NCBI GenBank assembly: GCA_005779395.1
Contig: SXJP01000028.1
Span: 1 to 64,000, forward strand
DNA length: 64,000 nucleotides
Origin: Actinomycetota bacterium
GTDB lineage: Bacteria; Actinomycetota; Acidimicrobiia; IMCC26256; PALSA-610
Reading direction: 5' to 3'
Shown here: in pieces, positions 3,367-62,503 of the stretch
Numbering within the stretch: the first letter of the stretch is position 1
Layout of the letters: each line of letters starts with the position of its first letter
Program-made: the position numbers and the translations under genes
Notes under the pieces: generated by a model
What the model was told of the DNA's origin: nothing
Seen by the model: the letters and a program-made list of their open reading frames with translations, nothing else
Database searches by the model: none

Positions 3367-4430
3367 CCCGCCGAGTCCTCGACGCCGATGCACACGTCAT
3401 CGAACCGTACGGAATCTTCGGCGATGCACAGAGCCTCGACCGAAACCCCATCGACATACCTCCCACAACGCCAACTAACGCATGTGGCGGCGCCGACCTC
3501 AGTGACCAGTGGGAAAATCGCTGGGATGCTCCCTCATACCTGCGCGCAATGGACACCCAAGCGATCGATGCGGCGGTCCTCTACCCCTCGGTCGGGCTAT
3601 TCGTTCCGTTTCAGGCAGACATTGACAGTGCCCAGCAAACAACCGCATGTTCGGGCTATGCAGAATGGATTGCGGGTTACTGCGATAGTGCGCCATCTCG
3701 TCTCGCCGGAGTAGGCATCGCTCCACTAGCCGACCCTTTGGCGGCTGCATTCGAGGCGCGTCGTTGCGCCGCGCTCGGCTTAGTCGGCATACTCGCTCGT
3801 CCGAACTACCTATATGGCCGGAGCCTCGGCGACCCTGCTTACGACCATCTGTACGACGTACTAGAGGAACACAGTCTGGTCCTGGCCGTACACGAAGGCA
3901 TGGGGTTGCGTGGTGGCCCGACCCTCGGCGCCGATCACTTCGCGAGTTTCGCCGGGCGACACCTTTGTTCGCATCCAATGGAGCAGATGGCAGCGCTGGC
4001 GTCGCTGGTATTGGGTGGTGCGCTCGAGCGTCACCCTTACTTGAAAGTTGCTTTCCTCGAAAGCGGAACCGGGTGGTTGCCCTACTGGCTAGCGCGCCTA
4101 GACGACCACATCGAGTGGATGTCAGACACCGAAACCAAGCATCTTTCACTCAGCGCGACGGAGTACTTCAAGCGGCAATGCTGTATTTCTTCGGACCCCG
4201 AAGATCGCCTCGCCGCACAGACTTGCGAAGTAGTTGGCGCCGACCGGATGATCTGGGCAAGCGACTTCCCCCACCCCGATGCCGCATTCCCTGATGCGTT
4301 GCTCGAGTTCGAAAGCAACAACCCGGGACTCGACAAAGAATCTGCGACAGCGATTCTGTGGGACAGCCCCGTGGACTTTTACGGCCTACATCAGCGATTC
4401 TTGTCAGCAGCTGTGGCTAGTACCGGTTGA
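3363..4430 (+). CDS. Amidohydrolase-2 (PF04909-like) metal-dependent hydrolase
   Basis: VLDADAHVIEP at the N-terminus, AVHEGMG, and WASDFPHPD at the C-terminus. The probable TTG start at 3363 overlaps the SDR stop (TTGA). Confidence 0.7.
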   Translation: MTRRVLDADAHVIEPYGIFGDAQSLDRNPIDIPPTTPTNACGGADLSDQWENRWDAPSYLRAMDTQAIDAAVLYPSVGLFVPFQADIDSAQQTTACSGYAEWIAGYCDSAPSRLAGVGIAPLADPLAAAFEARRCAALGLVGILARPNYLYGRSLGDPAYDHLYDVLEEHSLVLAVHEGMGLRGGPTLGADHFASFAGRHLCSHPMEQMAALASLVLGGALERHPYLKVAFLESGTGWLPYWLARLDDHIEWMSDTETKHLSLSATEYFKRQCCISSDPEDRLAAQTCEVVGADRMIWASDFPHPDAAFPDALLEFESNNPGLDKESATAILWDSPVDFYGLHQRFLSAAVASTG

Positions 4431-5319
4431 GCTTCACTAAGTAGGCAGCCATCGCCGAGGTTGTTTCGGCTGGCCGTTCTTGTTGGGTCCAATGGCCACA
4501 GTTGTCGATCACGACCTTCACGAGATTTGGGACACGTTCTTCCATGCCGTCTGCCATCGCAGGCGTTAGCACCGGGTCATCTGCTGCAGAAATCATGAGG
4601 CACGGCACATCGATCTTGCGATCTGCCCAGCCTTTAGATAGTTCCCAGTTTCGGTCGAGGTTTCTGTAGTACTCGATCGGTGGGGTTAGCGCGCCGGCGG
4701 GCCGAAATGCAATCTTGAACTGTTCGAGAATCTCGTCTGGAAACGCATCCGGGTTCTTCACCATGTCATTCAAGAAAATCATTTCTATGAAGTCATCGTG
4801 TCCTTTGCCCCAAGAAAAGATCCATTCCGCTACCCCGCGGTCTTGAAAACCGATTATGTAGATCGGTGTGTCAGGAAAGACCATCCGGAGCATCTGCACG
4901 GGCGGGATCGGACTGCGTGCCAGGTCAGGCGTGTTGACACCGATGACACCGGCAGTCATCTCGGGGAATTGGCGAGCGAAGTTCCATACCAAAATTCCGC
5001 CCCAATCATGGCCTGCAACTACAACGGTTTCGTGTCCGAGTGCGGTAACTAGGGCCGCGAGTGCGCCGTTCAGGAACACGATGTCATAGTCGACATCTGG
5101 CTTGTCAGTACGGCCGTAGCCAGGCAGGTCTGGTGCTACGACATGAAATCCGAGGGCAGCAAGCGCGTCGATCTGGTGGCGCCATGACAACGCAATTTCT
5201 GGGAATCCGTGGCACAACAGAACTAGTGGGTCGGCTGAGTCACCTGCTTCGAGACAAAAGAATCGCATTCTGTTAGCAACCACATAGCGCTCCCTCACGG
5301 GGCCGCACAGTACCGCCAA
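4417..5319 (-). CDS. Alpha/beta hydrolase, epoxide hydrolase / haloalkane dehalogenase-like
   Basis: LLCHGFPEIALSWRHQ, VVAPDLPGYGRTDKP, and GHDWGG nucleophile elbow. The start codon is ambiguous (TTG at 5319 or ATG at 5268). Confidence 0.75.
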   Translation of the reverse strand: MAVLCGPVRERYVVANRMRFFCLEAGDSADPLVLLCHGFPEIALSWRHQIDALAALGFHVVAPDLPGYGRTDKPDVDYDIVFLNGALAALVTALGHETVVVAGHDWGGILVWNFARQFPEMTAGVIGVNTPDLARSPIPPVQMLRMVFPDTPIYIIGFQDRGVAEWIFSWGKGHDDFIEMIFLNDMVKNPDAFPDEILEQFKIAFRPAGALTPPIEYYRNLDRNWELSKGWADRKIDVPCLMISAADDPVLTPAMADGMEERVPNLVKVVIDNCGHWTQQERPAETTSAMAAYLVKLNRY

Positions 5320-5387
5320 CTCGATGTATGCATAGCCACGAAACGTCTGAAGCGCCTCGATGCGACCGTCACTAACGTGAATACACG

Positions 5388-6140
5388 ATGACTGGACCAG
5401 TCCGACCAGAAGATGCTGACGTGACCGATTACGTCGGGTTGCTCGATGTCGACGAACGCCTCGGAACTCGGGTCGGGCGTCGCATCGTGTTGGGCCTCAT
5501 GGGCGCCGGAGCCGCTGGCATTATTTTCGGGCGACCGATTCAGGAAAAAACCGCTCAGGTCATCTCCGGTGTGCCTGGCCTGAACCAACTGCCAGTCGGC
5601 GGTCGCTGGCGGATCTACACAGTCACCGGCGGACTACCGAAGCGTTCGCAAGCCGACTACTCGCTTCGGATACACGGACTCGTCGATGAGGAACTGACCT
5701 TCAGCTATGAGCAGCTACTCGAACTTGAGCCAACCCATCTCACCAAAGATTTTCAGTGCGTTACAGGTTGGCGTGTCGAGGATGTGAAGTGGACAGGAAT
5801 ACGGCTCGCAGATCTGCTCGATGCTGCTGGCGTGCAAACGAGCGCGACTGCGCTGCGGTTCTTTAGCTTCGACGGCATATACACAGAGAGCCTGACTCTC
5901 GCTCAGGCCCGCCGTGACGACGTGATCGTTGCGTACTCGATGCTCGGCGATGACATCACCCGCGCTCACGGTGGTCCCGTTCGGTTGTATGTCGCGCCGA
6001 TGTACGGCTACAAGAGCATCAAGTGGTTAGAGAGCATAGAAGTCACAGACGAAGTCGTTCCGGGATATTGGGAGCGCCGGTTCTACGCGGTCGACGCGTG
6101 GATCGGAAACTCAAACGGGCGCAATGACAATCCCGTCTGA
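5388..6140 (+). CDS. Sulfite-oxidase-family molybdopterin oxidoreductase (MsrP/YedY-like) with a Tat-type signal
   Basis: RRIVLGLMGAGAAG twin-arginine N-terminus, FQCVTGWRVEDVKWTGIRLADLL, and GGPVRLYVAPMYGYKSIKWLESIEVTD. Confidence 0.75.
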   Translation: MTGPVRPEDADVTDYVGLLDVDERLGTRVGRRIVLGLMGAGAAGIIFGRPIQEKTAQVISGVPGLNQLPVGGRWRIYTVTGGLPKRSQADYSLRIHGLVDEELTFSYEQLLELEPTHLTKDFQCVTGWRVEDVKWTGIRLADLLDAAGVQTSATALRFFSFDGIYTESLTLAQARRDDVIVAYSMLGDDITRAHGGPVRLYVAPMYGYKSIKWLESIEVTDEVVPGYWERRFYAVDAWIGNSNGRNDNPV

Positions 6141-6777
6141 GATACCTGCGCGCATCGCGCGCTTCGCTCCGACTGTGCGTGTAGTACATGCATTAAATGC
6201 GATCGGCTTCGGCTTACTCACCTTCACAGGTGCTGCGATGTACGGAGCGCCGGGAACACAGTGGGTTGGACGACGCGACCTAGTACGCAATGTTCACGTG
6301 TGGGTCGGCATTTTCCTGCTGCTTCCCCTGATCGTCGGTCTCGCTTCAAGCTCGGGGTTGCGTGACGACTTCAGGCGACTGTCGCGTTGGAGCGCAGAAG
6401 ACAAGCGGTGGTGGTTTAAGTCAAAGCGCACGGAAGTTCGGCTCGGAAAATTCAATCCTGGCCAGAAGGCCAATGCGAGTTTCACACTCGCGGCTCTGCT
6501 CGCACTTCTCGGAACTGGCGCCATCATGAAGTGGTACTCGCCGTTCGGCGACGACTGGCGCACGGGAGCAACTTTCGTCCACGACTGGACTGCACTAGCC
6601 CTCGGGCTAGTCGTAATCGGCCACATCTACATGGCGATACGCGACCGCTCTGCGCTCGACGGGATGATTCGAGGCACTGTCCCATCTGAGTGGGCAGCCA
6701 CCGGACGACCCCGTTGGTATTCCGAAGTCATACAAGCGTCTGAAAATGATGCAAGCGATTTGGGCGACTCTCGATAG
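6124..6777 (+). CDS. Membrane b-type cytochrome (cytochrome b561 / Ni-Fe hydrogenase b-type cytochrome family), partner of the Mo enzyme
   Basis: VRVVHALNAIGFGLLTFTG with a conserved His, four predicted TM helices, and a 17-nt overlap with the upstream Mo-enzyme gene. Confidence 0.6.
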   Translation: MTIPSEIPARIARFAPTVRVVHALNAIGFGLLTFTGAAMYGAPGTQWVGRRDLVRNVHVWVGIFLLLPLIVGLASSSGLRDDFRRLSRWSAEDKRWWFKSKRTEVRLGKFNPGQKANASFTLAALLALLGTGAIMKWYSPFGDDWRTGATFVHDWTALALGLVVIGHIYMAIRDRSALDGMIRGTVPSEWAATGRPRWYSEVIQASENDASDLGDSR

Positions 6778-6788
6778 GGTCAATACCA

Positions 6789-7931
6789 ATGGAAAATGCG
6801 CCCATGAGTAAAAAAATGGTTATTCCAACTGACCTATTGCCACTTGATGGACGTTTCGGGTCAGGACCAAGCAAGGTCCAGACCCAGTTCGTGTCCAAGC
6901 TTGCATATGCAGCACCGAGATTCCTTGGTACGAGCCATCGCCAACCTGCCGTGCGTTCCGTGGTCGGAAAAATGCGCTCAGGAATGCGCGACCTTTTCGC
7001 GCTGCCGGACGGCTACGAAGTGCTACTCGGCAACGGAGGAAGCACATCGTTCTGGGATGCCGCAAGCTTCGGACTTGTACAAAACCGTGCTCAGCATTGC
7101 GTTATCGGTGAGTTTTCGAGCAAGTTCGCAACCGTCAACACCGCAGCACCGCACCTCGGGCAACCCGAAATTATCGAGACGGCGCCAGGCCAGACGCCAA
7201 CCCCGTGTCGCATGAACACCGACATCGATACCTATTGCTTCGTTCACAGCGAAACGAGTACCGGCGTAACGATGAACGTCGAGCGACCAGACGGCGCAGA
7301 CGGCATCGTTCTCGTAGACGCCACAAGTGCCGCAGGCGGCTTGCGTGTAGACCCCGCCCAGTTCGACGTCTACTACTTCGCTCCGCAGAAGTGTTTCGGC
7401 GGCGATGGAGGGTTGTGGATCGCACTCGTATCTCCGGATGCCGTCGCTCGCATCGAGTCGCTGAGTCAGACCGATCGCTGGCGTCCTGCCTCACTTGATC
7501 TTGGTATCGCGCTCGAACAAAGTCGACTCGATCAGACCTACAACACGCTGGCACTTGCGACTGTGTTCCTTCTCGCCGAGCAAGTCGAGTGGATGCTCGA
7601 CGGTGGTGGCCTCGAAGGTATGGCACAGAGAACCGACTCGAGCGCGACAACGCTTTATGGCTGGGCAGAAAAGCACCCTCTCGTCACACCGTTCGTGAGT
7701 GACACCCGGCACCGGAGCAATGTGACTGCGACACTCGACTTCGACGCGTCAATCGACGCAGCTGCAGTCGCTAAGACTCTGCGATCCAACGGAATCATTG
7801 ATACCGAGCCATATCGCAAGCTCGGTCGCAACCAACTCAGGATCGCGATGTTCCCGAACATTGACCCGTCCGACATCGAGCGACTCACAGCTTGCCTCGA
7901 CTACGTCCTAGAGCGATCAACTACTGCCTAG
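6789..7931 (+). CDS. serC: Phosphoserine aminotransferase SerC (actinobacterial type)
   Basis: DGRFGSGPSKV, LGTSHRQPAVRSVVGKMRSG, and GYEVLLGNGGSTSFWDAASFGL are collinear with mycobacterial SerC. Confidence 0.9.
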   Translation: MENAPMSKKMVIPTDLLPLDGRFGSGPSKVQTQFVSKLAYAAPRFLGTSHRQPAVRSVVGKMRSGMRDLFALPDGYEVLLGNGGSTSFWDAASFGLVQNRAQHCVIGEFSSKFATVNTAAPHLGQPEIIETAPGQTPTPCRMNTDIDTYCFVHSETSTGVTMNVERPDGADGIVLVDATSAAGGLRVDPAQFDVYYFAPQKCFGGDGGLWIALVSPDAVARIESLSQTDRWRPASLDLGIALEQSRLDQTYNTLALATVFLLAEQVEWMLDGGGLEGMAQRTDSSATTLYGWAEKHPLVTPFVSDTRHRSNVTATLDFDASIDAAAVAKTLRSNGIIDTEPYRKLGRNQLRIAMFPNIDPSDIERLTACLDYVLERSTTA

Positions 7932-7940
7932 AGTTGCACC

Positions 7941-9368
7941 GTGGCACTAGCCGACGGATTCGTAGTTTTTGTCAAGCGAGACTGCCCGACATGCGAGGTA
8001 ATTGTCCCGACTCTCCGCGCAATCGCGAAGGAACTCCCCCTCACCGTTTTCACTCAAGATGACCCAGCGTTTCCAGAGGGCCTATCACCAATCAACGACA
8101 CTGACCTCAACAAGTCTTTCGAGTTTGAAGTCGAGACAGTCCCGACACTGTTGAAGGTCGAGGCAGGGGTCGTCACCGAACGTCTTGAAGGTTGGTTACG
8201 GTCAGCCTGGCAAGAAGTAACGGGGTTACCTGATATTGGCGCGGAACTTCCGGAATACAGACCAGGGTGTGGAAGCCTGACTAACGACCATGCAGTTCTC
8301 GATGCGCGCTTGGTCGTTAACTACGCCTCGGAACTCAGTAGCCGCACGGTTTCATTAGGAGCAGATGAAGACGACGTCGAAGCGATATTCGAGCGGGGTT
8401 GGACCGACGGACTCCCTGTCGTACCTCCTACTGTCGAGCGCGTCGCACGCATGCTGGCTGGTACAACGCGCGAACCAGATGAGATAGTCGTGCTCGCGCC
8501 ACCTGACCTCGTCGAATGCACTATCGAAAAGATCGCAATCAACGCTGTGATGGCCGGATGCAAGCCCGAATACCTACCCGTTGTCATCGCCGCCGTGGAA
8601 GCGGCGTGCACCGAATCGTTCAATGCTCACGGACTCCTGTGCACGACTTATTTCAGCGGCCCTCTAGTACTCGTGAATGGCCCGTACTCACGCGTGATTG
8701 GAATGAACAGTGGAGTGAACGCCCTCGGGCAAGGCAACCGAGCGAATGCGACAATCGGGCGCGCGTTGCAGCTAGTGATTCGCAACGTCGGTGGTGGACG
8801 CCCAGGCGAGATCGATAGAGCAACGTTGGGCAACCCTGGTAAGTACACCTTCTGCTTTGCTGAAAGAGAACATGATTCGCCGTGGGAGCCATTCCATGTC
8901 GAGCGCGGGTTCGACGAACGCCAAAGCACGGTAACGCTTTTCGCGGCAAGTGGCGTGCAACCAGCCGTCGACCAGCTAAGCCGAGAACCAGAAGAGCTCG
9001 CACGAAGTCTCGCTGCCTGTTTGCGAACAGTCGGCCACCCCAAAAACGTCTACGTATGGGACGCCATGCTCGTAGTTAGCCCAGAACACGCACGCGTCTT
9101 TGGCGAAGCCAGCTGGAGTAAACAACGGGTCCGCGACGAAATCACGTCAGCGTTGCAGATTTCGGCCGATGAGATCATCAAGGGCGCAGGTGGAATTGCT
9201 GAAGGCGTGCCAGAGCAACTCAGCGGCACATCCATTCCGAAGTTTCGAGAAGGAGGCTTGCAAATCGTTCACGCTGGTGGAGATGCAGGTTTATTCTCGG
9301 CAATCATCGGTGGATGGGCGAGTGGCGCAGTCGGTTCCGAAATCATCACGAAGGAGATCACGCTATGA
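7941..9368 (+). CDS. Fusion protein with an N-terminal thioredoxin-fold domain (CPTC) attached to an unrecognised domain of about 370 aa. Translationally coupled to the downstream selenoprotein gene.
   Basis: GTG start. VVFVKRDCPTCEVIVPTL CxxC motif. No signal peptide. The stop TGA overlaps the ATG of the next gene (ATGA at 9364..9368). Confidence 0.6.
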   Translation: MALADGFVVFVKRDCPTCEVIVPTLRAIAKELPLTVFTQDDPAFPEGLSPINDTDLNKSFEFEVETVPTLLKVEAGVVTERLEGWLRSAWQEVTGLPDIGAELPEYRPGCGSLTNDHAVLDARLVVNYASELSSRTVSLGADEDDVEAIFERGWTDGLPVVPPTVERVARMLAGTTREPDEIVVLAPPDLVECTIEKIAINAVMAGCKPEYLPVVIAAVEAACTESFNAHGLLCTTYFSGPLVLVNGPYSRVIGMNSGVNALGQGNRANATIGRALQLVIRNVGGGRPGEIDRATLGNPGKYTFCFAEREHDSPWEPFHVERGFDERQSTVTLFAASGVQPAVDQLSREPEELARSLAACLRTVGHPKNVYVWDAMLVVSPEHARVFGEASWSKQRVRDEITSALQISADEIIKGAGGIAEGVPEQLSGTSIPKFREGGLQIVHAGGDAGLFSAIIGGWASGAVGSEIITKEITL

Positions 9369-9877
9369 CCACGATCTTGGACCCAACTTCCGAGCGCGTG
9401 CCTGCGACTCGGTCGCTTACACCACGGCCGGCTTCCCTCGACGGCCTTACTGTTGGGTTGCTCGATATCGGTAAGCCACGCGGCGACGTTTTTCTGAACC
9501 GGATCGAAGAGTTGCTCACCGCGAATGGCACCACGGTCTTGCGCTACCGCAAACCGACATTTACAAAACCCGCTCCAATTGACCTTCGGCAAGAAATTGC
9601 ACTGAATTGCGATGTCGTTATCGAGGCATTGGCCGATTGAGGGAGTTGCGCGTCGTGCAGTGTGCACGACACCGTGAATCTCGAAGGCGCAGGCGTGCCA
9701 ACCGTTTTCGTGGCTTCGAGCGCTTTCGTAGCCGCGAGCGCCGCGCAAGCGTCTTCTCTCGGCGCTAATCCAGCTTCGGTTTTTGTTGCTCACCCGATCC
9801 AGGATCGCACGAACGACGAAATTATTGCGCTCGCCGAAGCTGCCTTCGGCGAAATCCTGATTGCGCTAACCGCCTAA
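9364..9877 (+). CDS. Candidate UGSC-type selenoprotein (171 aa). TGA at 9638..9640 is read as selenocysteine in the motif ADUGSCASC (UxxCxxC).
   Basis: ORFs 9314..9640 and 9662..9877 are in the same frame, separated only by TGA. The frame stays open for 79 codons after the TGA. The next codons encode G-S-C-A-S-C. A perfect hairpin lies 11 nt downstream of the TGA. Confidence 0.7.
9652..9670 (+). promoter_or_regulatory. Candidate bacterial SECIS hairpin
   Basis: GTCGTGCA-gtg-TGCACGAC: a perfect 8-bp stem with a GUG loop, starting 11 nt 3-prime of the in-frame UGA. Confidence 0.55.
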
Positions 9878-11016
9878 GACTGCGCTGTACCGCCAAGCTT
9901 GCCGCCTAGTTCTGGACACTCGCCTGCGAACACTCCCCAACTGCAATCCCAACCCGGCGCAACCCACGCGTGGGTCATCCAGATGTGTTTCATCAGTTCA
10001 CCGGATTTCTTGCCGCCACGGGCAATGCATTCTTCTTCGGTTGCATTTTCCCCGGCGACGACAGTGAAGTTTTCGTCGAGGCAAAGGCCGCCGTTGGCGT
10101 TGTGCTGGTGCCAAATGTCGTTAGCGCCAGCAAAACCTTCGGGAACTCCTGATGCATCGAGCACGAGGTAGCTGAGCCCAATGATTCTGCTGGTCGGATC
10201 TGTACCTTCATATAGCAACTCAGATGGTGCCGCAGGGTTAAACCCAGGCACCCGAGAGATGTTCGTGTAGTGAGCGCCAATGCATGGCACAAATACTGTG
10301 CTCTCTTTATATCCGGCTGCGAGCGCATCAGCGACGGTCGGGAACTCGTCGATCACGGTTCGGGCCTGTGCCATCTGAACGATCAAGGTCTCTCGCTCGG
10401 CGTTACTAAGCGGAAATTGCTTCACGAGTCCACGGTGCCCGTGGTCTCCAGCGGCTTGGCCTTCTTGGCCGCCGTCTCCAGAGCCAGCCTGGCCAGGCGA
10501 AGCAGGCGTTGGAGATGAGATCTCACATGGAGAGGTCCCGTCTGCTGTCCCAGGAATTACTTCGCCAGCAGCGATAGCCACGTCGCCGTGGTCCATGTCG
10601 TGGTTTGCTGCTGTGGTCGGTGTCGCGTCGTCGCCCTGATGATCTGCACCCGATGTTGTCGCAGTCGTGTCTTCGGCGTGGTGATCCATCTCTGCAGGCT
10701 TGGAGTACGAACTCGAATCGGCCACCGCGGCTGTCACACCAATCAGTGCGATAACGAACACACCAGCAAGAACTTTCGGGCCAGCGTTTGTGCCGCTTAG
10801 TATGCGTTCACCGAACGCCAGCACTAAGGCGCCAATGCCAACAATGCAAGTCGCCGCAAAAAACAAAACATGGGTCGGAACACCGAAATCGAAGATCGCC
10901 TCGCTCTGCGCTAAGGCGTCGTCATCGACATAGCGGAACCAATCGATGAGCAGTGAGAGAACAAGAGTCGTGGCTCCGACGCCAACGAGTGAGGTTCCGA
11001 GTTTGCGTGCGCTCAT
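9874..11016 (-). CDS. Membrane protein with three N-terminal TM helices, a His/Asp-rich disordered linker and a Cys-containing C-terminal domain. Function unknown.
   Basis: DHHAEDTT, HDMDHGD and DHGHRG His clusters. It is convergent with the selenoprotein gene and the two stop codons overlap. Confidence 0.6.
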   Translation of the reverse strand: MSARKLGTSLVGVGATTLVLSLLIDWFRYVDDDALAQSEAIFDFGVPTHVLFFAATCIVGIGALVLAFGERILSGTNAGPKVLAGVFVIALIGVTAAVADSSSYSKPAEMDHHAEDTTATTSGADHQGDDATPTTAANHDMDHGDVAIAAGEVIPGTADGTSPCEISSPTPASPGQAGSGDGGQEGQAAGDHGHRGLVKQFPLSNAERETLIVQMAQARTVIDEFPTVADALAAGYKESTVFVPCIGAHYTNISRVPGFNPAAPSELLYEGTDPTSRIIGLSYLVLDASGVPEGFAGANDIWHQHNANGGLCLDENFTVVAGENATEEECIARGGKKSGELMKHIWMTHAWVAPGWDCSWGVFAGECPELGGKLGGTAQS

Positions 11017-12245: not shown

Positions 12246-14249
12246 TCAGGCTGGTTGCTCCTCAACTGCCACAAGCTCCGGTGAGGGCGACTGCAACAAT
12301 TTAGACAGGCCTTCGCCGTTCGTGAGTGTTCTCATCAAGGTCGCGGCTAGGCCTTCGACAGCCCCGCCTCCACCAGTCACCAAAACCTCCGGCACGATAG
12401 TTATCTTGCCCTCCGCAACTGCGTTTGCGACCGCAACCAATGCTGTCGCTATCTCGCCGATGGCTTCGCGCTGAGCCTTAAAACCTTCGGCACGACCTAG
12501 TCCGAGCGCTTCAACTGCCTTGCCTTCGGCAAGACCAATCGCTTCGATCTTTGCAGCTTCAGCACGACCTGTCAGTTCCACATAGCTCGCCTGGCCACGA
12601 GCCTCTGCTTCACGCGCTAGAGCCTCGTTCTGTTTTATGCCAACGCCGACCTGAGAGGCTGCGAGTTGCGCTTGCATCTCGGCCGTTCCCTTCGCCTTTT
12701 CCATTTCGACACGAGCGACTTGGGCGCGTTCTTCCTCCGCAAAAGTCGCCTTTTCTTGGTTGGCTATCTCCCGTTTGGTGAGAACGTCGACTAGCTCTGG
12801 CGGGAAAACGACATCTTGAATGTAGACACCTTTGGTCTCAACCTCATACAAACCGAGGTACTGCATGATCGCCGTGAGCGCAGCCTGCTGGACTTCCATT
12901 CGAGTTTCGATGAAGCGGACAGCCTCTAGGTCTTGAAGTGTGTTGCGGAAATGGTTTCCTACCGCAGATTGCAACACTTCGTTCACGAGATTCAACATTG
13001 TGCCGACCATCGAAATGACTTTCGGAGCGCGCGTGTCCGGAACGTGAATCTGAACTTGAAGTTCGATTCGAAACACGAAACCCTCGCGGCTCTTACCTTC
13101 GATTGGTTTCAGGTTCGCGTCGAGACAATGAGCCGTTGACACCGTCTCCGACCAGTTCAATGTCAGGATTGATGTCGGCACGATCTCGGCCGCATAACAG
13201 CGCGAGTTGATCGGGTACTTGCCTGTACGCAGTGGTTCCTGCCATATACCGCGGTGCCCGGGACGCACGATCGAACCGAACTTGAACTCGGTGCCTGAAG
13301 TGTCACTCGTTGGTAAGCCGACATACGCCTTGATTACTGCGACCTCGCCTTGGTTGACGACAAGCATCGGGACAAGTTCAACCTGAATCAAGAACGGGTT
13401 CAGCAAATAAGCGCCGTACAAAAGTGGGTCGTGTTGCAGTCCGATCTTGCCTCCGTGGGTAATGAAGCTCTGAAAATCTTGGTAGTTGTTGTGCAGGTTG
13501 TTTTTATTGCCGAGAAGCACGTCGATGATGTCAGCGTCGGTAGCTCCAGCAGCCTCGAGCGGTTCGACATCTGCGTACCCGCCAAGCCGATTCGCAATGT
13601 CTCCAGAAGGCAACGGCTCGCCTTCGAGCGCAGTCACTATGCCGACGATGTCTTGCGGGCCATCTGGTGCTATCACCATTACCCGTAAGTGTTCTGGTGC
13701 GAGGCCGAATGATTCTGGACGCATCACTCCACCAGTAGCCCGAGCGCGTTGTTCAAGCTCCGGTGCCACAGGTACGCCGTAAACCTGCCGTGCGCTAATT
13801 ACTAGAAATGCGACAGGATGAATCGGGATAAGAGTTCCCGGAGGAAGCACAGGTCGTTGGACTCCCTTTTCGCCTCCGCCTTCTATGAAAGGGCGGACAC
13901 TCGAGAAGTTCCCGAACGATGCAACATAGACACCGCTCTTGGCGCCTATCGGCAGTGGTTTTCCGACTTGCGCAACTACGACTCCAATTTCGCCGGCCGG
14001 AATCTGCACCCACGGGTGCTTCTTCACACCGAAGATCGGCCAAAGCTTGAAGCGCACACCGGGCATCAATAGGTCTGCCTGATACCCAGCTTCACCACTA
14101 AAGGCAATCGGGTTGTCGTCTCTTAATTTCTTGAACGAGAAGTGTTTGGTGACGAGACCAATCTGTGTTGGGCCGATGATGTTGATCGACTGCCATGTGG
14201 CGATTACCACTATGACAATGGCCACCGAGGCAAGTATCTGAACGATCAT
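12246..14249 (-). CDS. Flotillin / SPFH (band 7) family protein
   Basis: N-terminal TM helix, SPFH core, and a C-terminal Ala/Glu-rich coiled-coil flotillin tail (AEEERAQVARVEMEKAKGTAEMQAQ...). Confidence 0.8.
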   Translation of the reverse strand: MIVQILASVAIVIVVIATWQSINIIGPTQIGLVTKHFSFKKLRDDNPIAFSGEAGYQADLLMPGVRFKLWPIFGVKKHPWVQIPAGEIGVVVAQVGKPLPIGAKSGVYVASFGNFSSVRPFIEGGGEKGVQRPVLPPGTLIPIHPVAFLVISARQVYGVPVAPELEQRARATGGVMRPESFGLAPEHLRVMVIAPDGPQDIVGIVTALEGEPLPSGDIANRLGGYADVEPLEAAGATDADIIDVLLGNKNNLHNNYQDFQSFITHGGKIGLQHDPLLYGAYLLNPFLIQVELVPMLVVNQGEVAVIKAYVGLPTSDTSGTEFKFGSIVRPGHRGIWQEPLRTGKYPINSRCYAAEIVPTSILTLNWSETVSTAHCLDANLKPIEGKSREGFVFRIELQVQIHVPDTRAPKVISMVGTMLNLVNEVLQSAVGNHFRNTLQDLEAVRFIETRMEVQQAALTAIMQYLGLYEVETKGVYIQDVVFPPELVDVLTKREIANQEKATFAEEERAQVARVEMEKAKGTAEMQAQLAASQVGVGIKQNEALAREAEARGQASYVELTGRAEAAKIEAIGLAEGKAVEALGLGRAEGFKAQREAIGEIATALVAVANAVAEGKITIVPEVLVTGGGGAVEGLAATLMRTLTNGEGLSKLLQSPSPELVAVEEQPA

Positions 14250-14272
14250 GAACGTCTCCTACATATTCGCGA

Positions 14273-15460
14273 TTACCGAGGTAACGAAATAGTTCTTCTC
14301 CACCATGCATGAAAATGGGCTACGCCAGCTTCTGGACCAATGCCACTTGTCTGGACTAGGTATCCGGCGTTGCCGAGATCGAACGCTCGCGCCGTAGCGA
14401 TACCGCGCGCACGGGTTTCTACAAGTTCAATGTCTTGCACGGCGGTCTCGGCGTAAGCAGCGATCATTGCCGCGGTGAGTCCGGGCGCATGTTCTTCTGT
14501 TCCTTCACGTACAAAGAAATGTGCTCGGTTGATAAATGAGTTCGGACCCGTTGGTATCACGACTGAGATCACGCGCAAGCCGGCGTAGAGTTCGATCATC
14601 ACATTCGGGTAAATCGCGATCCAAGCCACAGCAAGTTCGTCGAGTTCTACGCCGCGACCAGCAGCATCCTTCGCGATCCCGTCAGCCCACTTGGCGTATT
14701 GCGCCGATGAGCTGTCGACATGTGCGAAGTCCAGAAACTGTGCATGGAAATGTTCACCGAACTCCCACTCGAGCGTGGCGCAGTCGGCGAAAGCGCTAAG
14801 ACCATCGTGAAATGGCGGCACGTGGTAACAGTCGCCGAAGACTTCTAAGAAGATCTTCCAGTCAGCGTCGTAGTGGTCGTCTTCACTCGAGTGCAAGACC
14901 CAGTCAGAACCGATGTTCGCATCGATTCCGCGACGTTTGAGTGCCGAGTCGAGTGCCGCCAAGTCGGCATCGAACTCTGCGACGCGGTCGACATCGGCGA
15001 CGAAAATCATGCCGCACCACTCGATGGTTTCGAACTCTCGCAAGTCGAGTGCTCGGCGTTCGGCAACGCCTGCTTCGTCATCAGCGAACTCACATCCTGG
15101 TCCACCAACAAACGATCCGTCGCGCCTGAAAGACCACTGGTGGTAAGGACACGTGATTACGGTCCGTTCGTTCACTATGTCGTCGTCTACTAAAGGTCGT
15201 AGCGCATGCGAGCAGAGGTTGGCGAGTGCTCGTACCTTGCCGTTTTCGCGTGTGATCAACAGGCGTGGATCACCATCTGAGCGGCGCGACCCACTCCCTG
15301 CCCAAAGTCGATCGTGGTCGAGATATGAAAACCCTGTCCCTGGATGAAAAAGCTGTGACCGTTCGCGATCGAAAACTTTCGGGTTCGCGTATTCATCAAT
15401 TTGCAAAGCGGACACGGCCGGGTGTGCCACGCGAGGATCCCTATTTGTACCGTCGATCAC
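14273..15460 (-). CDS. Rieske [2Fe-2S] aromatic ring-hydroxylating oxygenase alpha subunit
   Basis: CSHALRPL...CPYHQW Rieske CxH-x17-CxxH motif plus a C-terminal catalytic domain. Confidence 0.8.
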   Translation of the reverse strand: MIDGTNRDPRVAHPAVSALQIDEYANPKVFDRERSQLFHPGTGFSYLDHDRLWAGSGSRRSDGDPRLLITRENGKVRALANLCSHALRPLVDDDIVNERTVITCPYHQWSFRRDGSFVGGPGCEFADDEAGVAERRALDLREFETIEWCGMIFVADVDRVAEFDADLAALDSALKRRGIDANIGSDWVLHSSEDDHYDADWKIFLEVFGDCYHVPPFHDGLSAFADCATLEWEFGEHFHAQFLDFAHVDSSSAQYAKWADGIAKDAAGRGVELDELAVAWIAIYPNVMIELYAGLRVISVVIPTGPNSFINRAHFFVREGTEEHAPGLTAAMIAAYAETAVQDIELVETRARGIATARAFDLGNAGYLVQTSGIGPEAGVAHFHAWWRRTISLPR

Positions 15461-15520
15461 ACACGGAGACTACGTCAGGATATTCCGTCGCTCCTAAGGG
15501 GGAATTATTACTATGTGACG

Positions 15521-15982
15521 ATGTCCACAATTGCCGAACGCCTAATCAGCGCGAGCAACGCTTTCCTAATTGCTGTCCTGTGGTTCGACCTGATGTTTGA
15601 CGTGCAAGTAATCCGCCATCGCAACGCTTCCTTGCTGCCTACCGATGTTCTCGACTCAATCGCTCGGTATTACAAACGGGTCACGACTGATGCATTCCCT
15701 ATGGGCAGGCTCGTCGCCGTAGCGATGCTCACGCTGTTCGTTTCGCTGATCGTACGGGCTGCTTCAGAGGATGCGACGCTTCTTATCGATGTGCTGTCAA
15801 TAGGCGCCACGGTCGTGGCGGTCGGGCTAGCGCTCGCCAGAGTTGTGCGCGACTCTGTTCGGCTCGGCGCGCAGACGGAAACACAAGAGGTCCAGACTCG
15901 TCTCGCCCGTGGAATCTGCCGCGACCACTTCATTTGTCTAGCTGGGATGCTCGTCGTGTTTGTCACCCAACTCGTTCGATGA
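15521..15982 (+). CDS. Hypothetical small membrane protein
   Basis: Three to four hydrophobic helices. The start is ambiguous (GTG 15515 or ATG 15521). It is convergent with the ABC exporter gene. Confidence 0.45.
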   Translation: MSTIAERLISASNAFLIAVLWFDLMFDVQVIRHRNASLLPTDVLDSIARYYKRVTTDAFPMGRLVAVAMLTLFVSLIVRAASEDATLLIDVLSIGATVVAVGLALARVVRDSVRLGAQTETQEVQTRLARGICRDHFICLAGMLVVFVTQLVR

Positions 15983-15989
15983 CGGAGAT

Positions 15990-17792
15990 TTAGCGGTACG
16001 CGGCAGCCTGGATCGCGTAAAGCTCTGCGTACTGCCCGCCGTTAGCCATTAGCTCCTCGTGCGACCCGACTTCGGCAACGCGTGAGCCGTCGAGCACAAC
16101 GATCAGGTCTGCCATTCTGACAGTCGAGAATCTGTGCGAAACAAGCACCGTGATCCGGCCGTTTGTCTCTGTCGAAGCGCGCGACGCTGCTGCGAAGCGC
16201 TCGAACAGCGAGTGTTCCGTTTCGGCATCGAGAGCCGCAGTTGGTTCGTCGAGAATCAGAACGAGCGGATCGTCGCGCATAAACCCACGCGCCAGCGCGA
16301 ACTTCTGCCACTGGCCGAAGCTCACTTCGACACCCCCGTCCCATGTCGGCCCCAACTGGGTGTCTAGGCCATCCGGGAGATGCCCGATGACGTCGTTGGC
16401 GCCTGCACGATCAATCGCCACGCGAATGGCGTCAGTGTCCCCGATGCGCGGCTCGTCGCCCAACCCCACAGTTGTCTTGGCGTTGAACTCGAATCTGTAG
16501 AAGTCTTGGAAAGCACCTGCAAGCCGGGAACGCCAATCAGAGTTCGGCACCTTTGCAATGTCTGTTGCATCTGCGAGGATGCGGCCCGAGTCGGGCGAAT
16601 ATAGGCGTGCAAGAAGTTTGACGAGCGTGCTCTTACCTGCACCGTTTTCACCGACTACTGCGATCACTGCCCCTGCCGGCAAGAACAGGTTCACGTCGTC
16701 GAGGACGACACGATTGGCTCCAGGGTACGAAAACGTGATGTTCTCGAATCGGATGCCGTCGGTAAGGCGCAGTGGCGAGTCGAGATCCGCGTTTTCATCG
16801 AGACGGTTCGCGTAATCCTCAAGCCATGTAAGGCGCCGCGATGAATCGAGCCAGATACCTCGAAGGAAACCAAGTTCGCCGACAGCGGCGCCGACATAGT
16901 TGCTGAGGCGACTACCTGCTGTGAGCACAAGGATTATTGCGATAGTTCCGCCGTCAAGGCCGTCGGCGACGAATACAACAGCGCCGACGTAACCGCCGCT
17001 GAAACACAACCACGCAAGGCAGTGCCATAGCGCGCTCATCCATCGAGCCGTAGCTACTGGGCCATACCAAGCATCCCACGCGGCGCGTCTTTGCTCGACC
17101 AACAACTGAGCATTGCCGCTTACGCGAATTTCTTTGCCGGGAGGCGCAGTAGTTCCGACTATAAACAGATGACGAGCAAGCCGATTCTTAGTTGCCGCGC
17201 GCTCTTCCACTCTGCGTTCTACACCTGGTCGCCACGTCGAGGTGATCACCGTCGGGATCGCGAACAAACCAAGCAGGATCAGCGCGGGGTGAATTGACCC
17301 CAACAAAACGAGCGTGATCACAAGCCGAATAATCCAACCAGCCGTAGCGAACAACGACATAAAGAGATGGTCGAGCGCGAAGACCTGATCACGCAACATT
17401 GCGAGGCGATCGAGGTAATCCGGGCGCTCATGGTGTTCGACTGTTGCGACGGTCGCCTGAAGCCTCGCAACGTGCGACTCGAGTGCGACTGCGACCTTGT
17501 CACGAAACCTTCTCTGAACGCGGTCGAAGACGATCGTGAGAAACCAAGTCATTGTTGCGCTGATGCCAAGTCCGATGGCGGCGACGAAAATAAGTGTCCG
17601 GTCAGTTTCGAGCATTCCGTGCGCAAGCAGCGCTAGCCACAGCGCGATGAGCGCATCCGGGAGAGCGCTCAACAATGTCATCGCAAACGACAACAGCAAC
17701 ATTTTTGGCTCAGCCGAATATCCGAGTTTGACTGTGCGCCAAAGCGAATTAAGCGCTGGTGGGAGATCGCGGTCTGGCTCAGAGCTTTTCAT
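15990..17792 (-). CDS. ABC exporter with fused permease and ATPase
   Basis: N-terminal TMD, Walker A GENGAGKST, and the LSGGQ signature. Confidence 0.85.
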   Translation of the reverse strand: MKSSEPDRDLPPALNSLWRTVKLGYSAEPKMLLLSFAMTLLSALPDALIALWLALLAHGMLETDRTLIFVAAIGLGISATMTWFLTIVFDRVQRRFRDKVAVALESHVARLQATVATVEHHERPDYLDRLAMLRDQVFALDHLFMSLFATAGWIIRLVITLVLLGSIHPALILLGLFAIPTVITSTWRPGVERRVEERAATKNRLARHLFIVGTTAPPGKEIRVSGNAQLLVEQRRAAWDAWYGPVATARWMSALWHCLAWLCFSGGYVGAVVFVADGLDGGTIAIILVLTAGSRLSNYVGAAVGELGFLRGIWLDSSRRLTWLEDYANRLDENADLDSPLRLTDGIRFENITFSYPGANRVVLDDVNLFLPAGAVIAVVGENGAGKSTLVKLLARLYSPDSGRILADATDIAKVPNSDWRSRLAGAFQDFYRFEFNAKTTVGLGDEPRIGDTDAIRVAIDRAGANDVIGHLPDGLDTQLGPTWDGGVEVSFGQWQKFALARGFMRDDPLVLILDEPTAALDAETEHSLFERFAAASRASTETNGRITVLVSHRFSTVRMADLIVVLDGSRVAEVGSHEELMANGGQYAELYAIQAAAYR

Positions 17793-19593
17793 AGACCACC
17801 TCGTCGCCTTCTTCGTCTAGTTCGATGAAGCGACTCGCCTGGAGATCGAACATCGTGCGGTATCGACCGCTAGCAGCTATTAGTTCGTCGTGCGTTCCGA
17901 GTTCGACGACCTTGCCGTGTTCGAGTACGCAAATGCGGTCGGCAAGCCGAACGGTAGAGAACCGATGTGAGATCAAAATGGTTGTGCAACCGCGCGTGGC
18001 ACCCAGAATACGTTCAAAGATTTCGGACTCGCCGCGCACATCGAGTTGCGCGGTCGGCTCATCGAGCAGCACCACACCAGCGCCGAGACGCACAGCGCAT
18101 AAAGCTCTAGCAAGCGCTATTCGCTGCCATTGTCCGCCAGACAGATCGATCCCGCCGAAATACCCCTTGGCTAGAACTGTGTCGAGATCGGCGAGTTGAT
18201 CTGCTCCGGCTTCGAGTAAAGCAGCGAGAATCTCTTCGTCGGGAGCGCCCGAAGGCGCGACATTGTCGCGAAGTGAGAGTTCGTAGCGAACAAAATCTTG
18301 GAATACCGCTGTGACGGTCGAGCGCCACTCGGCGACGTCGAGGTCACGTAGATCTACGCCGTCGACCTCTACCGAGCCGTGCTGCGGGTCGTATAGACGA
18401 CACAGCAACTTGGCAAGGGTTGTCTTGCCGGCACCGTTCTGGCCGACGATTGCTAGCGAGGTTCCGGCAGGAATCGTGAGATCAAAATTTTCGAGAACTG
18501 GTCGGCTACTCGACTCGTACCCGAAGCTCAGATCGTGGAATCGAATTTCTCTTGCAACAGAGTCAGGTCTGCGAATGACGGCTGTCGCGCTCGCTGTGCC
18601 AGATAACGCTCCAGCTTCGGCCATCGATGATTCCAACCGGAGTACAGCAGCGACGGGGGCAGCGGCGCCGTCTAACGCCCAACTCCATCCGCCGAATGCG
18701 ATCGTGAACGTGCCCGCGGCAACGCTCATGTAGACGATTACAGCAGCGAGACTCAACTGCCCATTTGCTGCGTCGTTGCCAAGTGACCAAAAAACAGCGA
18801 CGTTCGCAGCTAGCACGACTACTAGCGCACCGGCAACAGACCGTTCACGCAACCGCGTCGCGTTGCGTTGTAGGTCGAACAAGGTCGTGCGTACAGTGAC
18901 GAAGCGATCGATGACCCACGGCGCCAGGCCGAACAGACGGATCTCCTTTGCTGCCGGAGCGTCGACTGCCAACCGATACGCATATTCGGCGTGCCGCTGA
19001 GCCGAGCGAACTTCGTCTGTATTGCGGTCACGCCAGACGGCACTTTCGCGCAACATCCAATGCGTGCTCAGCCACCCGCCTGCAAGAACTAGCGGCGCCC
19101 ACCATGAGTAGTTGAACAGGATTGCGGCTGCCACTAGCCCACCGAACAGGCGACCTAACCCGCTAGCGATGAAGTCCATCGAGATATGTAGCGGCGGACC
19201 CATGATGCCCAGGTCAAAGTCCCTCGCCATCGTCAGATCGTGCGTAAGTTCTGGGCGTTCGAGATGGCCCATGCCCGGTGGGGCTGTGGTTGCGACCATG
19301 AGACGATCGCTCAACCACGCCGACAAGCGGCTACCTAAGTTGAGTCCTACGACTTGGTGCAACGGCACGATCATCGAAAAGACGATGAACGTGATGCCAA
19401 CGAAAACGAGTGATCCCGTGATCGGCTCGCCATTGTCGAGCGCTCCGATCAGCGAGCCGGTCGCAACGGCTAACAGGGCCGGCAGCACTGAGCGCACAAT
19501 CAACATTGCCCACCAAGTAACGGCGAGAGCTGGCGCGGCGCGATACAGCGATGCGAAGAACTGGTGTTCCTGTCGTGCCTGAAGCTGTTTCAC
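17779..19593 (-). CDS. ABC exporter with fused permease and ATPase, heterodimer partner of the downstream gene
   Basis: GQNGAGKTT Walker A and LSGGQWQRIALARAL. It overlaps the partner gene by 14 nt. Confidence 0.85.
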   Translation of the reverse strand: MKQLQARQEHQFFASLYRAAPALAVTWWAMLIVRSVLPALLAVATGSLIGALDNGEPITGSLVFVGITFIVFSMIVPLHQVVGLNLGSRLSAWLSDRLMVATTAPPGMGHLERPELTHDLTMARDFDLGIMGPPLHISMDFIASGLGRLFGGLVAAAILFNYSWWAPLVLAGGWLSTHWMLRESAVWRDRNTDEVRSAQRHAEYAYRLAVDAPAAKEIRLFGLAPWVIDRFVTVRTTLFDLQRNATRLRERSVAGALVVVLAANVAVFWSLGNDAANGQLSLAAVIVYMSVAAGTFTIAFGGWSWALDGAAAPVAAVLRLESSMAEAGALSGTASATAVIRRPDSVAREIRFHDLSFGYESSSRPVLENFDLTIPAGTSLAIVGQNGAGKTTLAKLLCRLYDPQHGSVEVDGVDLRDLDVAEWRSTVTAVFQDFVRYELSLRDNVAPSGAPDEEILAALLEAGADQLADLDTVLAKGYFGGIDLSGGQWQRIALARALCAVRLGAGVVLLDEPTAQLDVRGESEIFERILGATRGCTTILISHRFSTVRLADRICVLEHGKVVELGTHDELIAASGRYRTMFDLQASRFIELDEEGDEVVYEKL

Positions 19594-22884: not shown

Positions 22885-23268
22885 TCAGCCAGGCTGAGTC
22901 AACTCAATGACATTGCCGTCAAGGTCTTTATAGCGAGACGACCGGCCCCACGGTTGCGCGATCGGATCGTGCAGGACCTCGGCTCCGGCAGCCACTGCCG
23001 TTGTGTGAGCCGACTCGGTGTCCTCGACTCGGAATGCGATTTGCGCACCGCTCGTGGTGGTGCCGTCCTTGCTCGCGTACAGGGCGAAGTCCATCAACTC
23101 GCTCCCGGTCCACGAAATCGCTGCATGTCTGCCACTAGCCCACGGGTTGTCGCCATCATGGTCGCTCAAGCGGAACACAAGTCCGAATGCTTCTGAGTAA
23201 AGCTGCATAGAACGATCAAGATCCGCGACTGTGAACACAACAGTCACTATGCGCCGAGATTCGATCAT
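22885..23268 (-). CDS. VOC (glyoxalase/bleomycin-resistance) family protein
   Basis: The IVTVVFTVADLDRSMQLYSEAFG beta-alpha-beta-beta-beta module. The start was trimmed to MIESRR. Confidence 0.7.
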   Translation of the reverse strand: MIESRRIVTVVFTVADLDRSMQLYSEAFGLVFRLSDHDGDNPWASGRHAAISWTGSELMDFALYASKDGTTTSGAQIAFRVEDTESAHTTAVAAGAEVLHDPIAQPWGRSSRYKDLDGNVIELTQPG

Positions 23269-23436
23269 CGCAATAGAGGTGCTCAGAGATACAGCAATGG
23301 CAACTCCGCGCACCCTTCGAACGTCGAACTACGAAGTCCATTTGGCGGACGAAGCAATTGACATGGGTCGGCGTAAGTGGCTACTGTGTCAATTTGCTGT
23401 CAGCAAAACTGACAAAATATTTACTGGAGGCAATAT

Positions 23437-24256
23437 GTTTTCGGTCGGGCGCAAAGCCGGGTACTTGGGCTGTGTATTCGTTTATATGCTTTCGGCTTGC
23501 GCCGATGATGGCACGAAGATCGACGCGAATAACAGCACCTCTGCGCCGCCAACTACTCACGAGACCGCCGCACATGGCGAAACACCGCATTGGACCTACG
23601 CAGAGGCCGAAGAGTGGGGCGAACTCTCTGAAGAGTTCGCAACTTGTGAATCTGGGACGCACCAGTCGCCCATCGACCTGGCAGGCGAAGAACCAGCAGA
23701 CCTCCCTAACGCCACGATTAAGTACACACCAGCATCAGGCACAGTCGTCAACAACGGTCACACGATCCAGGTGGATGTAAGCGGTGCCGGCGGCATCGTC
23801 CTCGACGGCACGAGCTACGAACTAGTTCAATACCACTTCCACGGACCGAGTGAACACACTGTTGACGGCAAGGTCTTTCCGCTCGAGGGCCACCTCGTGC
23901 ACAAGACCTCTGACGGGAATCTTGCGGTAATCGGGTTCCTCGTCGATGAAGGTGCGCAAGACAACCCTGCATTCGACTCTCTCATTGCGGGCCTTCCCGC
24001 TAGCAGCGAGCCAACATCGCTTGAGTCAAACGTCGACCCGAACGCGATGCTCCCAGGCGCTCACTCGGCATTCCGTTACGACGGTTCGCTCACAACGCCG
24101 CCGTGTAGCGAAGGCGTCGAGTGGACCGTGCTCGCCACACCGATAACGATGAGCGCAGCTCAGATAGCAGCGATCACCGACGGACTAGCAGAACCAAACA
24201 ACCGGCCGGTGCAATCGCTCAACGACCGAGAGCTAGCTCTGGACATCACGGACTAG
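23437..24256 (+). CDS. Alpha-class carbonic anhydrase, lipoprotein
   Basis: GGAGG SD. LSAC lipobox. QSPIDL, YHFHGPSEH and SLTTPPCSEGVEW motifs. Confidence 0.85.
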
Positions 24257-28217: not shown

Positions 28218-28261
28218 CGCTTGAGTCTAGGTTCGGGCCGACGATTTCCGCTAGGGGGCGC

Positions 28262-29284: not shown

Positions 29285-29349
29285 CTCATAAGCCTAGAGA
29301 TGCGGGCCAAGTTTGGTTGCAAGGCTCGTCTCTACTCGGAACTGGCCCT

Positions 29350-29395
29350 AGAAAAGAAATGGCGGACGTCGGAAAAGGGGGTAACCGACGTCCGC
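29350..29395 (-). terminator. Intrinsic-terminator-like hairpin plus U-tract 70 nt upstream of the moaA start. It could be a leader attenuator, or the terminator of the moeA-galU-plsY transcript.
   Basis: On the minus strand there is a perfect 11-bp stem (GCGGACGTCGG / CCGACGTCCGC) with a 12-nt loop, followed by CAUUUCUUUUC. Confidence 0.5.
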
Positions 29396-59592: not shown

Positions 59593-59646
59593 CCGCGACC
59601 GTAACAGCGAGCGAACGAATTAGGGGGCTTGTTACTCAGGGTGCAC

Positions 59647-61325
<1,679 letters not shown>

Positions 61326-62443: not shown

Positions 62444-62503
62444 ACGCTCCGAGATTACCGTCGAACCAAGAGAACCCGCCGGTCGGCGGACTTCCTCACT
62501 GGT

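Follow-up and report, generated by a model that had tools for sequence, protein, structure and literature searches.

A UGSC-family gene of an Actinomycetota bacterium whose in-frame UGA is very probably read as selenocysteine

In a 64,000-nucleotide stretch of DNA from an Actinomycetota bacterium (contig SXJP01000028.1 of assembly GCA_005779395.1; the whole stretch is referred to as the window), two open reading frames (ORFs), 9314..9640 and 9662..9877, lie in one frame (9662 - 9314 = 348), and the sole stop between them is a TGA at 9638-9640. The question raised by this locus is whether the TGA ends a gene or is read through and, if it is read, as which residue. We consider it very probable that positions 9365-9877 are a genuine selenocysteine (Sec)-encoding gene of the UGSC family, the product of which is a single 170-residue selenoprotein. 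The features that bear on this reading are as follows.

9365..9877, + strand: gene of the UGSC family, very probably a selenoprotein gene; 170 codons, one of them for Sec, and the TAA stop; found with hidden Markov models (HMMs) and tblastn
9351..9356, + strand: Shine-Dalgarno-like AAGGAG, 8 nt 5' of the UGSC ATG; direct reading
9638..9640, + strand: in-frame UGA, the probable Sec codon (residue 92) and first codon of U-G-S-C-A-S-C (9638-9658); comparative evidence
9652..9670, + strand: hairpin of the selenocysteine insertion sequence (SECIS) type; 5' arm 9652-9659, GUG loop 9660-9662, 3' arm 9663-9670
9875..9877, + strand: TAA, taken as the true stop of the selenoprotein gene; overlaps the end of a convergent gene (9874..11016, - strand)

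A first-pass annotation of this DNA had proposed a hidden selenoprotein here, and most of its description agrees with a direct reading of the letters. The two ORFs share a frame and are split by the TGA as claimed, and the codons 3' of it (GGG AGT TGC GCG TCG TGC) read G-S-C-A-S-C, which together with the UGA gives the UxxCxxC motif U92-x-x-C95-x-x-C98. The proposed ATGA coupling to the upstream gene is present as well, in that the ATG at 9365-9367 overlaps the TGA stop (9366-9368) of a 475-aa ORF, hereafter the partner gene. In two Cys-form loci (L086 and L087), GGGAG stands at the position equivalent to AAGGAG. The perfect 8-bp stem was correctly placed, starting 11 nt after the UGA, and is recovered by RNAfold. 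The start coordinate of 9364 was one base too early, and the frame counted from it is wrong; the real ATG begins at 9365. As for the open frame past the TGA, its length was right (78 sense codons, 79 with the stop, ending in the TAA at 9875-9877), but the statement that this is unlikely by chance did not hold. In this 57% GC window, 55-115 open codons follow the stops of other TGA-ending genes, and the open-frame argument is therefore weak when taken alone. The expectation that standard callers would split or truncate the gene is borne out by public records. The ENA, NCBI, and Logan gene calls end at the TGA, the public record of the source metagenome-assembled genome (MAG) annotates the 91-aa fragment only, and in five independent assemblies with identical sequence the gene is called as a 91-aa or 108-aa fragment. 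When the unannotated gaps of the window were scanned for other ORFs split by a TGA, the translations obtained were all of low complexity and looked out of frame.

The read-through product, with U written as C, belongs to a curated family over its whole length. It scores 153.5 bits against NCBIfam NF041046, "UGSC family (seleno)protein" (cut-off 125), and 154.8 bits against Pfam PF24696, "UGSC" (cut-off 25), the latter match spanning residues 3-169 of 170. The U/C-G-S-C motif that characterizes the family is encoded by TGA-GGG-AGT-TGC at 9638-9649, and Sec and Cys alternate at its first position among homologues. By these sequence models, 9365-9877 is an ordinary member of the known, curated UGSC selenoprotein family and not a new one. 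The "UGSC-containing protein" was first described in 2007 by Zhang and Gladyshev (PMC1976440) and again in 2008 (PMC2398784). In the Global Ocean Sampling (GOS) survey, it ranked near the top of the selenoprotein families in abundance, and 255 Sec forms stood against 21 Cys forms (PMC1976440, PMC2398784). Recent reviews list UGSC under NF041046 and still call its function uncharacterized (PMC13188914). Thus, of the proposal of a "hidden selenoprotein", the noun is supported by the curated-family HMMs and the adjective is not, since the family entered the literature in 2007 and is covered by curated models.

Comparison with relatives provides the strongest evidence that the TGA is read through. 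A DNA-level scan of species-representative genomes gave 575 relatives, from which 80 loci were retained; these are mostly MAGs of Acidimicrobiia and Ilumatobacteraceae, and also include Myxococcota, Pseudomonadales, Latescibacterota, and others. Alignment statistics refer to 81 sequences. In every one of the 80 loci, TGA occupies the homologous codon and is followed by GSC[T/A/V][S/T]C. The tblastn matches cover residues 1-170 of the read-through protein, and the read-through products in relatives stop at the equivalent position (166-190 aa). A protein homologue search returned 5154 matches, of which a few are full length (171-180 aa) and hundreds are 93-97 aa long, ending exactly at ...EALAD; a search with the downstream half returned many separately called 71-aa fragments from many metagenomes. 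Six full-length homologues (P0003, P0004, P0005, P0007, P0008, and P0009) carry Cys at the TGA column. In three others (P0001, P0002, and P0012), the residue is W, R, or G, which correspond to single-base neighbors of TGA. It should be noted that the codons in these three are presumably TGG, CGA, or GGA, that the contigs are all short, and that sequencing errors or real loss of Sec are both possible.

The frame remains a coding frame beyond the TGA. Mean entropies at codon positions 1, 2, and 3 are 0.42, 0.24, and 1.19 bits over the 30 codons before the TGA, and 0.78, 0.61, and 1.45 bits over codons +11 to +43 after it. This retained periodicity indicates that the downstream frame is coding, and in the same frame as the upstream half. 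The locus thus combines an in-frame UGA and conserved coding in the same frame with one domain that spans the UGA. At the level of sequence comparison, we regard these data as decisive for read-through beyond chance. Both checks that had been suggested at the outset, whether Sec or Cys aligns to this codon and whether the downstream frame is conserved, came out in favor of the selenoprotein.

The hairpin consists of GTCGTGCA (9652-9659), the loop GTG (9660-9662), and TGCACGAC (9663-9670), and sits within the codons for (A)-S-C-S-V-H-D. Only 10 perfect 8-bp hairpins with a loop of 3-8 nt exist in the whole 64 kb, and 1 of 852 TGA triplets has such a hairpin starting 5-25 nt downstream; about 0.3% would be expected per site. 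The stability of a 71-nt fold was not unusual relative to shuffled sequences (z = -0.9) and is uninformative. Conservation of the hairpin among relatives is more telling. Third-codon-position entropy drops to 0-0.57 bits over codons +4 to +10, the synonymous sites of codons +6, +7, +8, and +10 are invariant, and none of the 81 sequences shows a synonymous change in TGC, AGT, GTG/TTG, or GAC. In that alignment, which contains 80 distinct sequences, 98.8% of stem cells are paired and five of the eight pairs never vary, while two pairs are broken only in five variants with UGSCTTC. The pair 9655:9667 joins the third positions of Ser and His codons; 69 sequences have G-C there, 6 have G-U, and 5 have A-U. 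The change from G-C to A-U is compensatory, and the covariation is modest. In two Cys-form homologues (TGT/TGC) the hairpin is lost, and the minimum free energy of the downstream region is -3.0 and -11.1 kcal/mol versus -20.3 in the window.

Bacterial SECIS elements are stem-loops that directly follow the UGA (PMC9312934) and whose apical loops contain guanosines (PMC2398784, Figure 7). Here the GUG loop starts at a distance of 20 nt from the UGA, which fits that arrangement; the window thus has both the stem-loop directly behind the UGA and the G at its apex, and the synonymous-site pattern points to selection as RNA. No Rfam family matches the hairpin. By analogy with described elements, we infer that it is a SECIS element that would bind SelB.

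With respect to decoding, TGA ends 25 of the 49 genes in the window, the partner gene among them, and is the commonest stop, from which it follows that the genetic code is standard and not reassigned. The only tRNA in the window is a tRNA-Ala. ARAGORN and Rfam RF01852 identified a tRNA-Sec no more than about 4 kb from the operon in four related loci; in three of these (L047, L057, and L076) it immediately precedes the partner gene, and in the fourth (L007) it follows UGSC at a distance of 3.5 kb. The coordinates in two of these related Actinomycetota MAGs are as follows.

L057, 8402-8493: tRNA-Sec (ARAGORN/RF01852)
L076, 2702-2793: tRNA-Sec (ARAGORN/RF01852)

The sel genes were scanned in L047 and L007 only. 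In L047, the order is selD (4404-5426, - strand), selA (5453-6760), selB (6757-8364), tRNA-Sec (8370-8461), partner gene, and UGSC; in L007, selD, selB, and selA adjoin the tRNA-Sec in a stretch spanning 14036-18826. All of these selD, selA, and selB genes score above their equivalog cut-offs. This gene order suggests a selenium-utilization island that includes UGSC in the four related Actinomycetota MAGs.

Other readings of the same locus have to be set against a Sec-encoding gene. The TGA could be read without Sec, or not at all, in a lineage that has lost the Sec machinery, so that the gene is a decaying relic, or is read through at a low level by a near-cognate tRNA (Trp or Cys) and yields mostly a 91-residue fragment. 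This would agree with the lack of sel genes and tRNA-Sec among what was found in the window, and with the W, R, or G residues of P0001, P0002, and P0012, through which single-base neighbors of TGA are seen to occur. However, 64 kb make up a few percent of a genome, so absence there means little, and tRNA-Sec lies close to the operon in four relatives, both of those that were scanned also having selD, selA, and selB at its side. Moreover, the gene has remained intact: its hairpin is perfect, the downstream frame is open over its full length, and the sequence is identical in the five independent assemblies; TGA and hairpin are kept together in all 80 relatives, which are up to 73% identical. We consider a loss of Sec decoding to be unlikely. 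A different objection concerns the hairpin, the nucleotide conservation of which could reflect amino-acid or codon-usage constraint on S-C-S-V-H-D and no RNA element. The peptide is indeed highly conserved, and the five unvarying stem pairs would look the same in either case. But synonymous third positions are fixed here versus a mean entropy of 1.2-1.45 bits elsewhere; across the 81 sequences, TGC is not once replaced by TGT, AGT by AGC or TCN, or GAC by GAT, unlike the Asp codon just 5' of the TGA, which varies. The single variable pair changes in a compensatory way, and the two Cys-form homologues that lost the hairpin encode near-identical peptides (SCAIHD and SCSTHD) with other codons. 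Constraint on the peptide alone is accordingly a very unlikely account of the hairpin.

The public gene calls, which stop at the TGA and in many metagenomes list the 71-aa downstream ORF separately, would be correct if the locus held two small genes (9365..9640 and 9662..9877), the TGA were an ordinary stop, and the hairpin were a terminator or attenuator. Yet one Pfam/NCBIfam domain covers both halves, the Cys-form homologues are continuous proteins of 171-180 aa, and the predicted fold requires both halves. Protein-level conservation is among the highest in the seven codons that separate the TGA from the GTG at 9662, and no T-run follows the hairpin. This arrangement is highly improbable, slightly more so than the peptide-constraint account. 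Least credible, to the point of being negligible, is an alternative code in which TGA is a sense codon for Trp or Gly and no recoding signal is involved. Nothing more than the in-frame TGA itself speaks for such a code, whereas more genes of the window end in TGA than in any other stop, among them the partner gene with the stop that overlaps the UGSC start, and TGA is the terminal stop of the UGSC gene itself in many relatives; in homologues, the column carries Cys and not Trp or Gly. Taken together, the curated family, the TGA/Cys column, the coding conservation, and the hairpin conserved at synonymous sites support the original interpretation of this UGA as Sec.

The gene is accompanied by its partner, the features of which are the following.

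7941..9368, + strand: partner gene, 475 aa; N-terminal thioredoxin fold, RPGCGS linker, and C-terminal domain of about 340 aa
7983..7994, + strand: C-P-T-C redox motif, codons 15-18; C15, P16, T17, and C18 are invariant and correspond to the thioredoxin active-site region in PDB profile matches
8328..9365, + strand: C-terminal domain of the partner, about residues 130-475; no curated family

A homologue of the partner lies immediately upstream of UGSC in 79 of the 80 loci, and a partner with the same ATGA overlap also stands beside Cys-form UGSC genes; other neighbors are conserved only among the closest relatives. The sole locus in which the partner is distant, by about 5 kb, is L045 (3415-10504) of a high-GC Dormibacterota MAG, where very long ORFs lie between the two genes; the gap may be an insertion or a misassembly. 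Within the partner, the linker motif R-P-G-C110-G-S is invariant, and the C-terminal domain contains the near-invariant motifs DGLP, AVMAGC207, NGP, GxGxRAN..IGRA, GG, and C305. The protein matches no curated family beyond thioredoxin. For the C-terminal domain, no relative was found in Pfam (E <= 10), NCBIfam, or PDB-sequence profile searches, and NCBIfam scans of 26 C-domain proteins matched only the fused modules. The domain occurs in 6871 representative clusters, either standalone (in proteins of about 710-740 aa) or fused to UGSC, thioredoxin (Trx)-like, ResA-like, or FtrB-like (double-selenoprotein) modules. Judged by these occurrences, the domain represents a large unnamed family that has repeatedly been joined to thiol/selenol redox domains. 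Natural fusions of UGSC with the C-domain (P0471, P0487, P0499, and P0503) are probably the "UGSC/Unknown_1 fusion" of PMC2398784. Adjacency, translational coupling, and fusion argue for UGSC and its partner acting as one unit.

The fold of UGSC was approached through the AlphaFold model of the Cys-form homologue P0003 (pLDDT, the predicted local distance difference test, 90.4), which consists of five successive beta-alpha units with the Sec/Cys position where strand 3 ends and helix 3 begins. Among solved structures, its nearest neighbors are flavodoxins and corrinoid-binding domains and not thioredoxins, so that a thioredoxin fold was not found in this model. UGSC is thus predicted to have a flavodoxin-like alpha/beta fold and not a thioredoxin-like one. 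A PDB-sequence profile search with UGSC gave no match.

Weak similarity to selenoprotein B of the glycine and D-proline reductases was detected across the family. The window protein matches the GrdB model (TIGR01917) at E 0.009 and 15 bits, versus a cut-off of 602, with residues 52-147 aligned to profile positions 312-397 of 431. Among 24 UGSC members, 20 match the GrdF model (best E 1.6e-4), 19 the GrdB model (best E 5e-5), 10 the generic selenoprotein B model (best E 0.003), and 8 the GrdH model (best E 0.015). Pfam GRDB gave no match to UGSC even at E <= 10. PrdB/GrdB-like Sec sequences were taken from Dataset S1 of PMC2398784 (GOS) and built into a 15-sequence profile, to which hhalign aligned the UGSC profile over 68 columns (P 0.001), Sec on Sec and Cys on Cys; matches to single PrdB/GrdB reads were weak (E 0.005-0.11). 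In the profile alignment, ADUGSC is paired with VPxUPxC, the next strand and the "HPIQD / FPLG" segment match too, and UxxC with its Sec falls at the homologous C-terminal position of selenoprotein B. The Sec-on-Sec alignment and the weak family-wide matches point to remote homology of one region, not to family membership; UGSC appears to be at most a remote relative of the Sec-bearing region of selenoprotein B (GrdB/PrdB). Membership in selenoprotein B proper was considered and rejected, as UGSC falls below the HMM cut-off and is without the full architecture of about 430 aa. Among the neighboring genes, none belongs to the Pfam families of the operon partners GrdA, GrdE, or PrdA (the pyruvoyl proprotein).

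From these elements a working mechanism can be proposed. The UGA at 9638-9640 would be decoded as Sec by the standard bacterial route, in which the hairpin at 9652-9670 would bind SelB-GTP-Sec-tRNA(Sec) and deliver it to the ribosome, as expected from knowledge of Sec insertion (PMC9312934). The UGSC gene is the second gene of a conserved two-gene module and is translationally coupled to the first. Its U-x-x-C-x-x-C, at the predicted junction of strand 3 and helix 3, would have the usual geometry of a redox-active selenol/thiol pair. UGSC and the partner may form one cytoplasmic oxidoreductase, in which reducing equivalents could pass between the partner CPTC and a Sec92/Cys95 selenenylsulfide, with participation of Cys98, while the partner C-domain might hold the substrate. 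An analogy would be found in selenoprotein B, the UxxC-bearing subunit of the glycine and D-proline reductases. UGSC host lineages are mostly aerobic aquatic Actinomycetota, not amino-acid-fermenting anaerobes. More speculatively, UGSC and its obligate partner could be an unrecognized two-subunit selenoenzyme, the Sec subunit of which is a minimal free-standing descendant or ancestor of the GrdB/PrdB Sec domain and which serves the reductive cleavage of a small molecule in abundant aerobic aquatic bacteria; this we hold to be doubtful, and offer as a tentative idea.

Several observations count against the Sec reading and the functional proposal built on it. A domain scan of the genes of at least 170 aa in the 64-kb window did not find selA, selB, or selD, nor was tRNA-Sec found there, and the Sec-decoding capacity of this genome is assumed from relatives. 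Our confidence stops short of certainty because the sel genes of this genome have not been seen. Experimental Sec incorporation was not found in the literature for any UGSC member. The covariation comes from one variable pair, the five invariant pairs being uninformative in this respect, and the sequences are mutually related. On the structural side, the fold model is that of P0003, which is 58% identical to the window protein, and the AlphaFold model of the partner C-domain is of low confidence and unreliable. The link to GrdB/PrdB is statistically weak (hhalign probability 21%; 15 bits versus 602), and the redox-relay and substrate-binding roles are inference only.

Other genes in the window were also recorded. 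A class-V aminotransferase gene (Pfam Aminotran_5; 6789-7931, + strand) ends 10 nt before the partner gene, and among relatives only the closest (L015, L059, L061, L084, and L085) have a gene of this type there; we take it to resemble the actinobacterial-type phosphoserine aminotransferase. Just upstream of it is an overlapping gene pair (5388-6777, + strand) with Oxidored_molyb and Ni_hydr_CYTB domains, MsrP/MsrQ-like. On the other side, a convergent 380-aa ORF (9874-11016, - strand) overlaps the UGSC stop by 4 nt. It has no Pfam match, a hydrophobic N-terminus, and a His/Asp-rich middle, and a homologue lies downstream of UGSC only in L015 and L084. Farther away are a eukaryotic-type (alpha) carbonic anhydrase domain (23231-24256, + strand; in a protein of 341 aa that is extended N-terminally by about 125 residues), a molybdenum-cofactor cluster (27702-30979, - strand; MoaC, MoaA, and MoeA) with an unannotated gap of about 490 nt (29285-29770) between moaA and moeA, and a nitrogen-regulation cluster (57109-61325, - strand) composed of a glnD-like gene (57109-59592) and amtB (60021-61325), the 430-nt gap between which presumably holds a P-II gene shorter than the ORF cut-off. 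Two further sets of same-frame neighbors are split by a single TGA, namely an alpha/beta hydrolase followed by a thiamine pyrophosphate (TPP) enzyme (39154-41640, - strand) and a 308-aa ORF followed by a chlorite-dismutase-like gene (61667-63430, - strand). These look like ordinary neighbors and not recoding, because the flanking domains are unrelated.

The locus reveals no new kind of biology, given that the family has been known since 2007-2008 and curated models exist. Its practical value is as a clean case of a selenoprotein gene that is truncated to 91 aa in public records and was recovered from sequence alone. It could also lead toward a testable function through the conserved and sometimes fused partner with its uncharacterized domain, the flavodoxin-like fold, the probable remote kinship with the Sec region of selenoprotein B, and the sel clusters near the operon in some relatives.

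Compared with known systems, the gene is closest to the described UGSC family, with which it shares the position of the motif, the Sec/Cys pair in homologues, a hairpin 3' of the UGA, and an occurrence in aquatic bacteria; the window motif is UGSCASC where most relatives have UGSCTSC, and nothing essential differs. The hairpin resembles the Escherichia coli fdhF SECIS in being a stem-loop within coding sequence, a few nt 3' of the UGA, with an apical-loop G. It differs in that its helix of 8 bp is perfect and has no bulged U, and in that its loop is the 3-nt GUG. With the thioredoxin-fold UxxC/CxxU selenoproteins (Trx-like, peroxiredoxin (Prx)-like, and SelW-like), UGSC has in common a redox UxxC at a helix N-terminus and an association with a CxxC thioredoxin domain, here carried by the partner, whereas the model of its homologue has five successive beta-alpha units. 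Selenoprotein B of the glycine, sarcosine, betaine, and D-proline reductases (GrdB, GrdF, GrdH, and PrdB; TIGR01917, TIGR01918, and NF040794; Pfam GRDB) is, at about 430 aa, much longer than the 170-aa UGSC, which is without the N-terminal roughly 300 residues of GrdB; the UGSC partner is unrelated to any curated family, and no GrdA/GrdE/PrdA-type genes are nearby. What UGSC and selenoprotein B do share is a UxxC that follows a hydrophobic beta-strand and precedes a helix, together with a "G-I-P-T-V" strand and a later "H/F-P-x-G/Q" segment.

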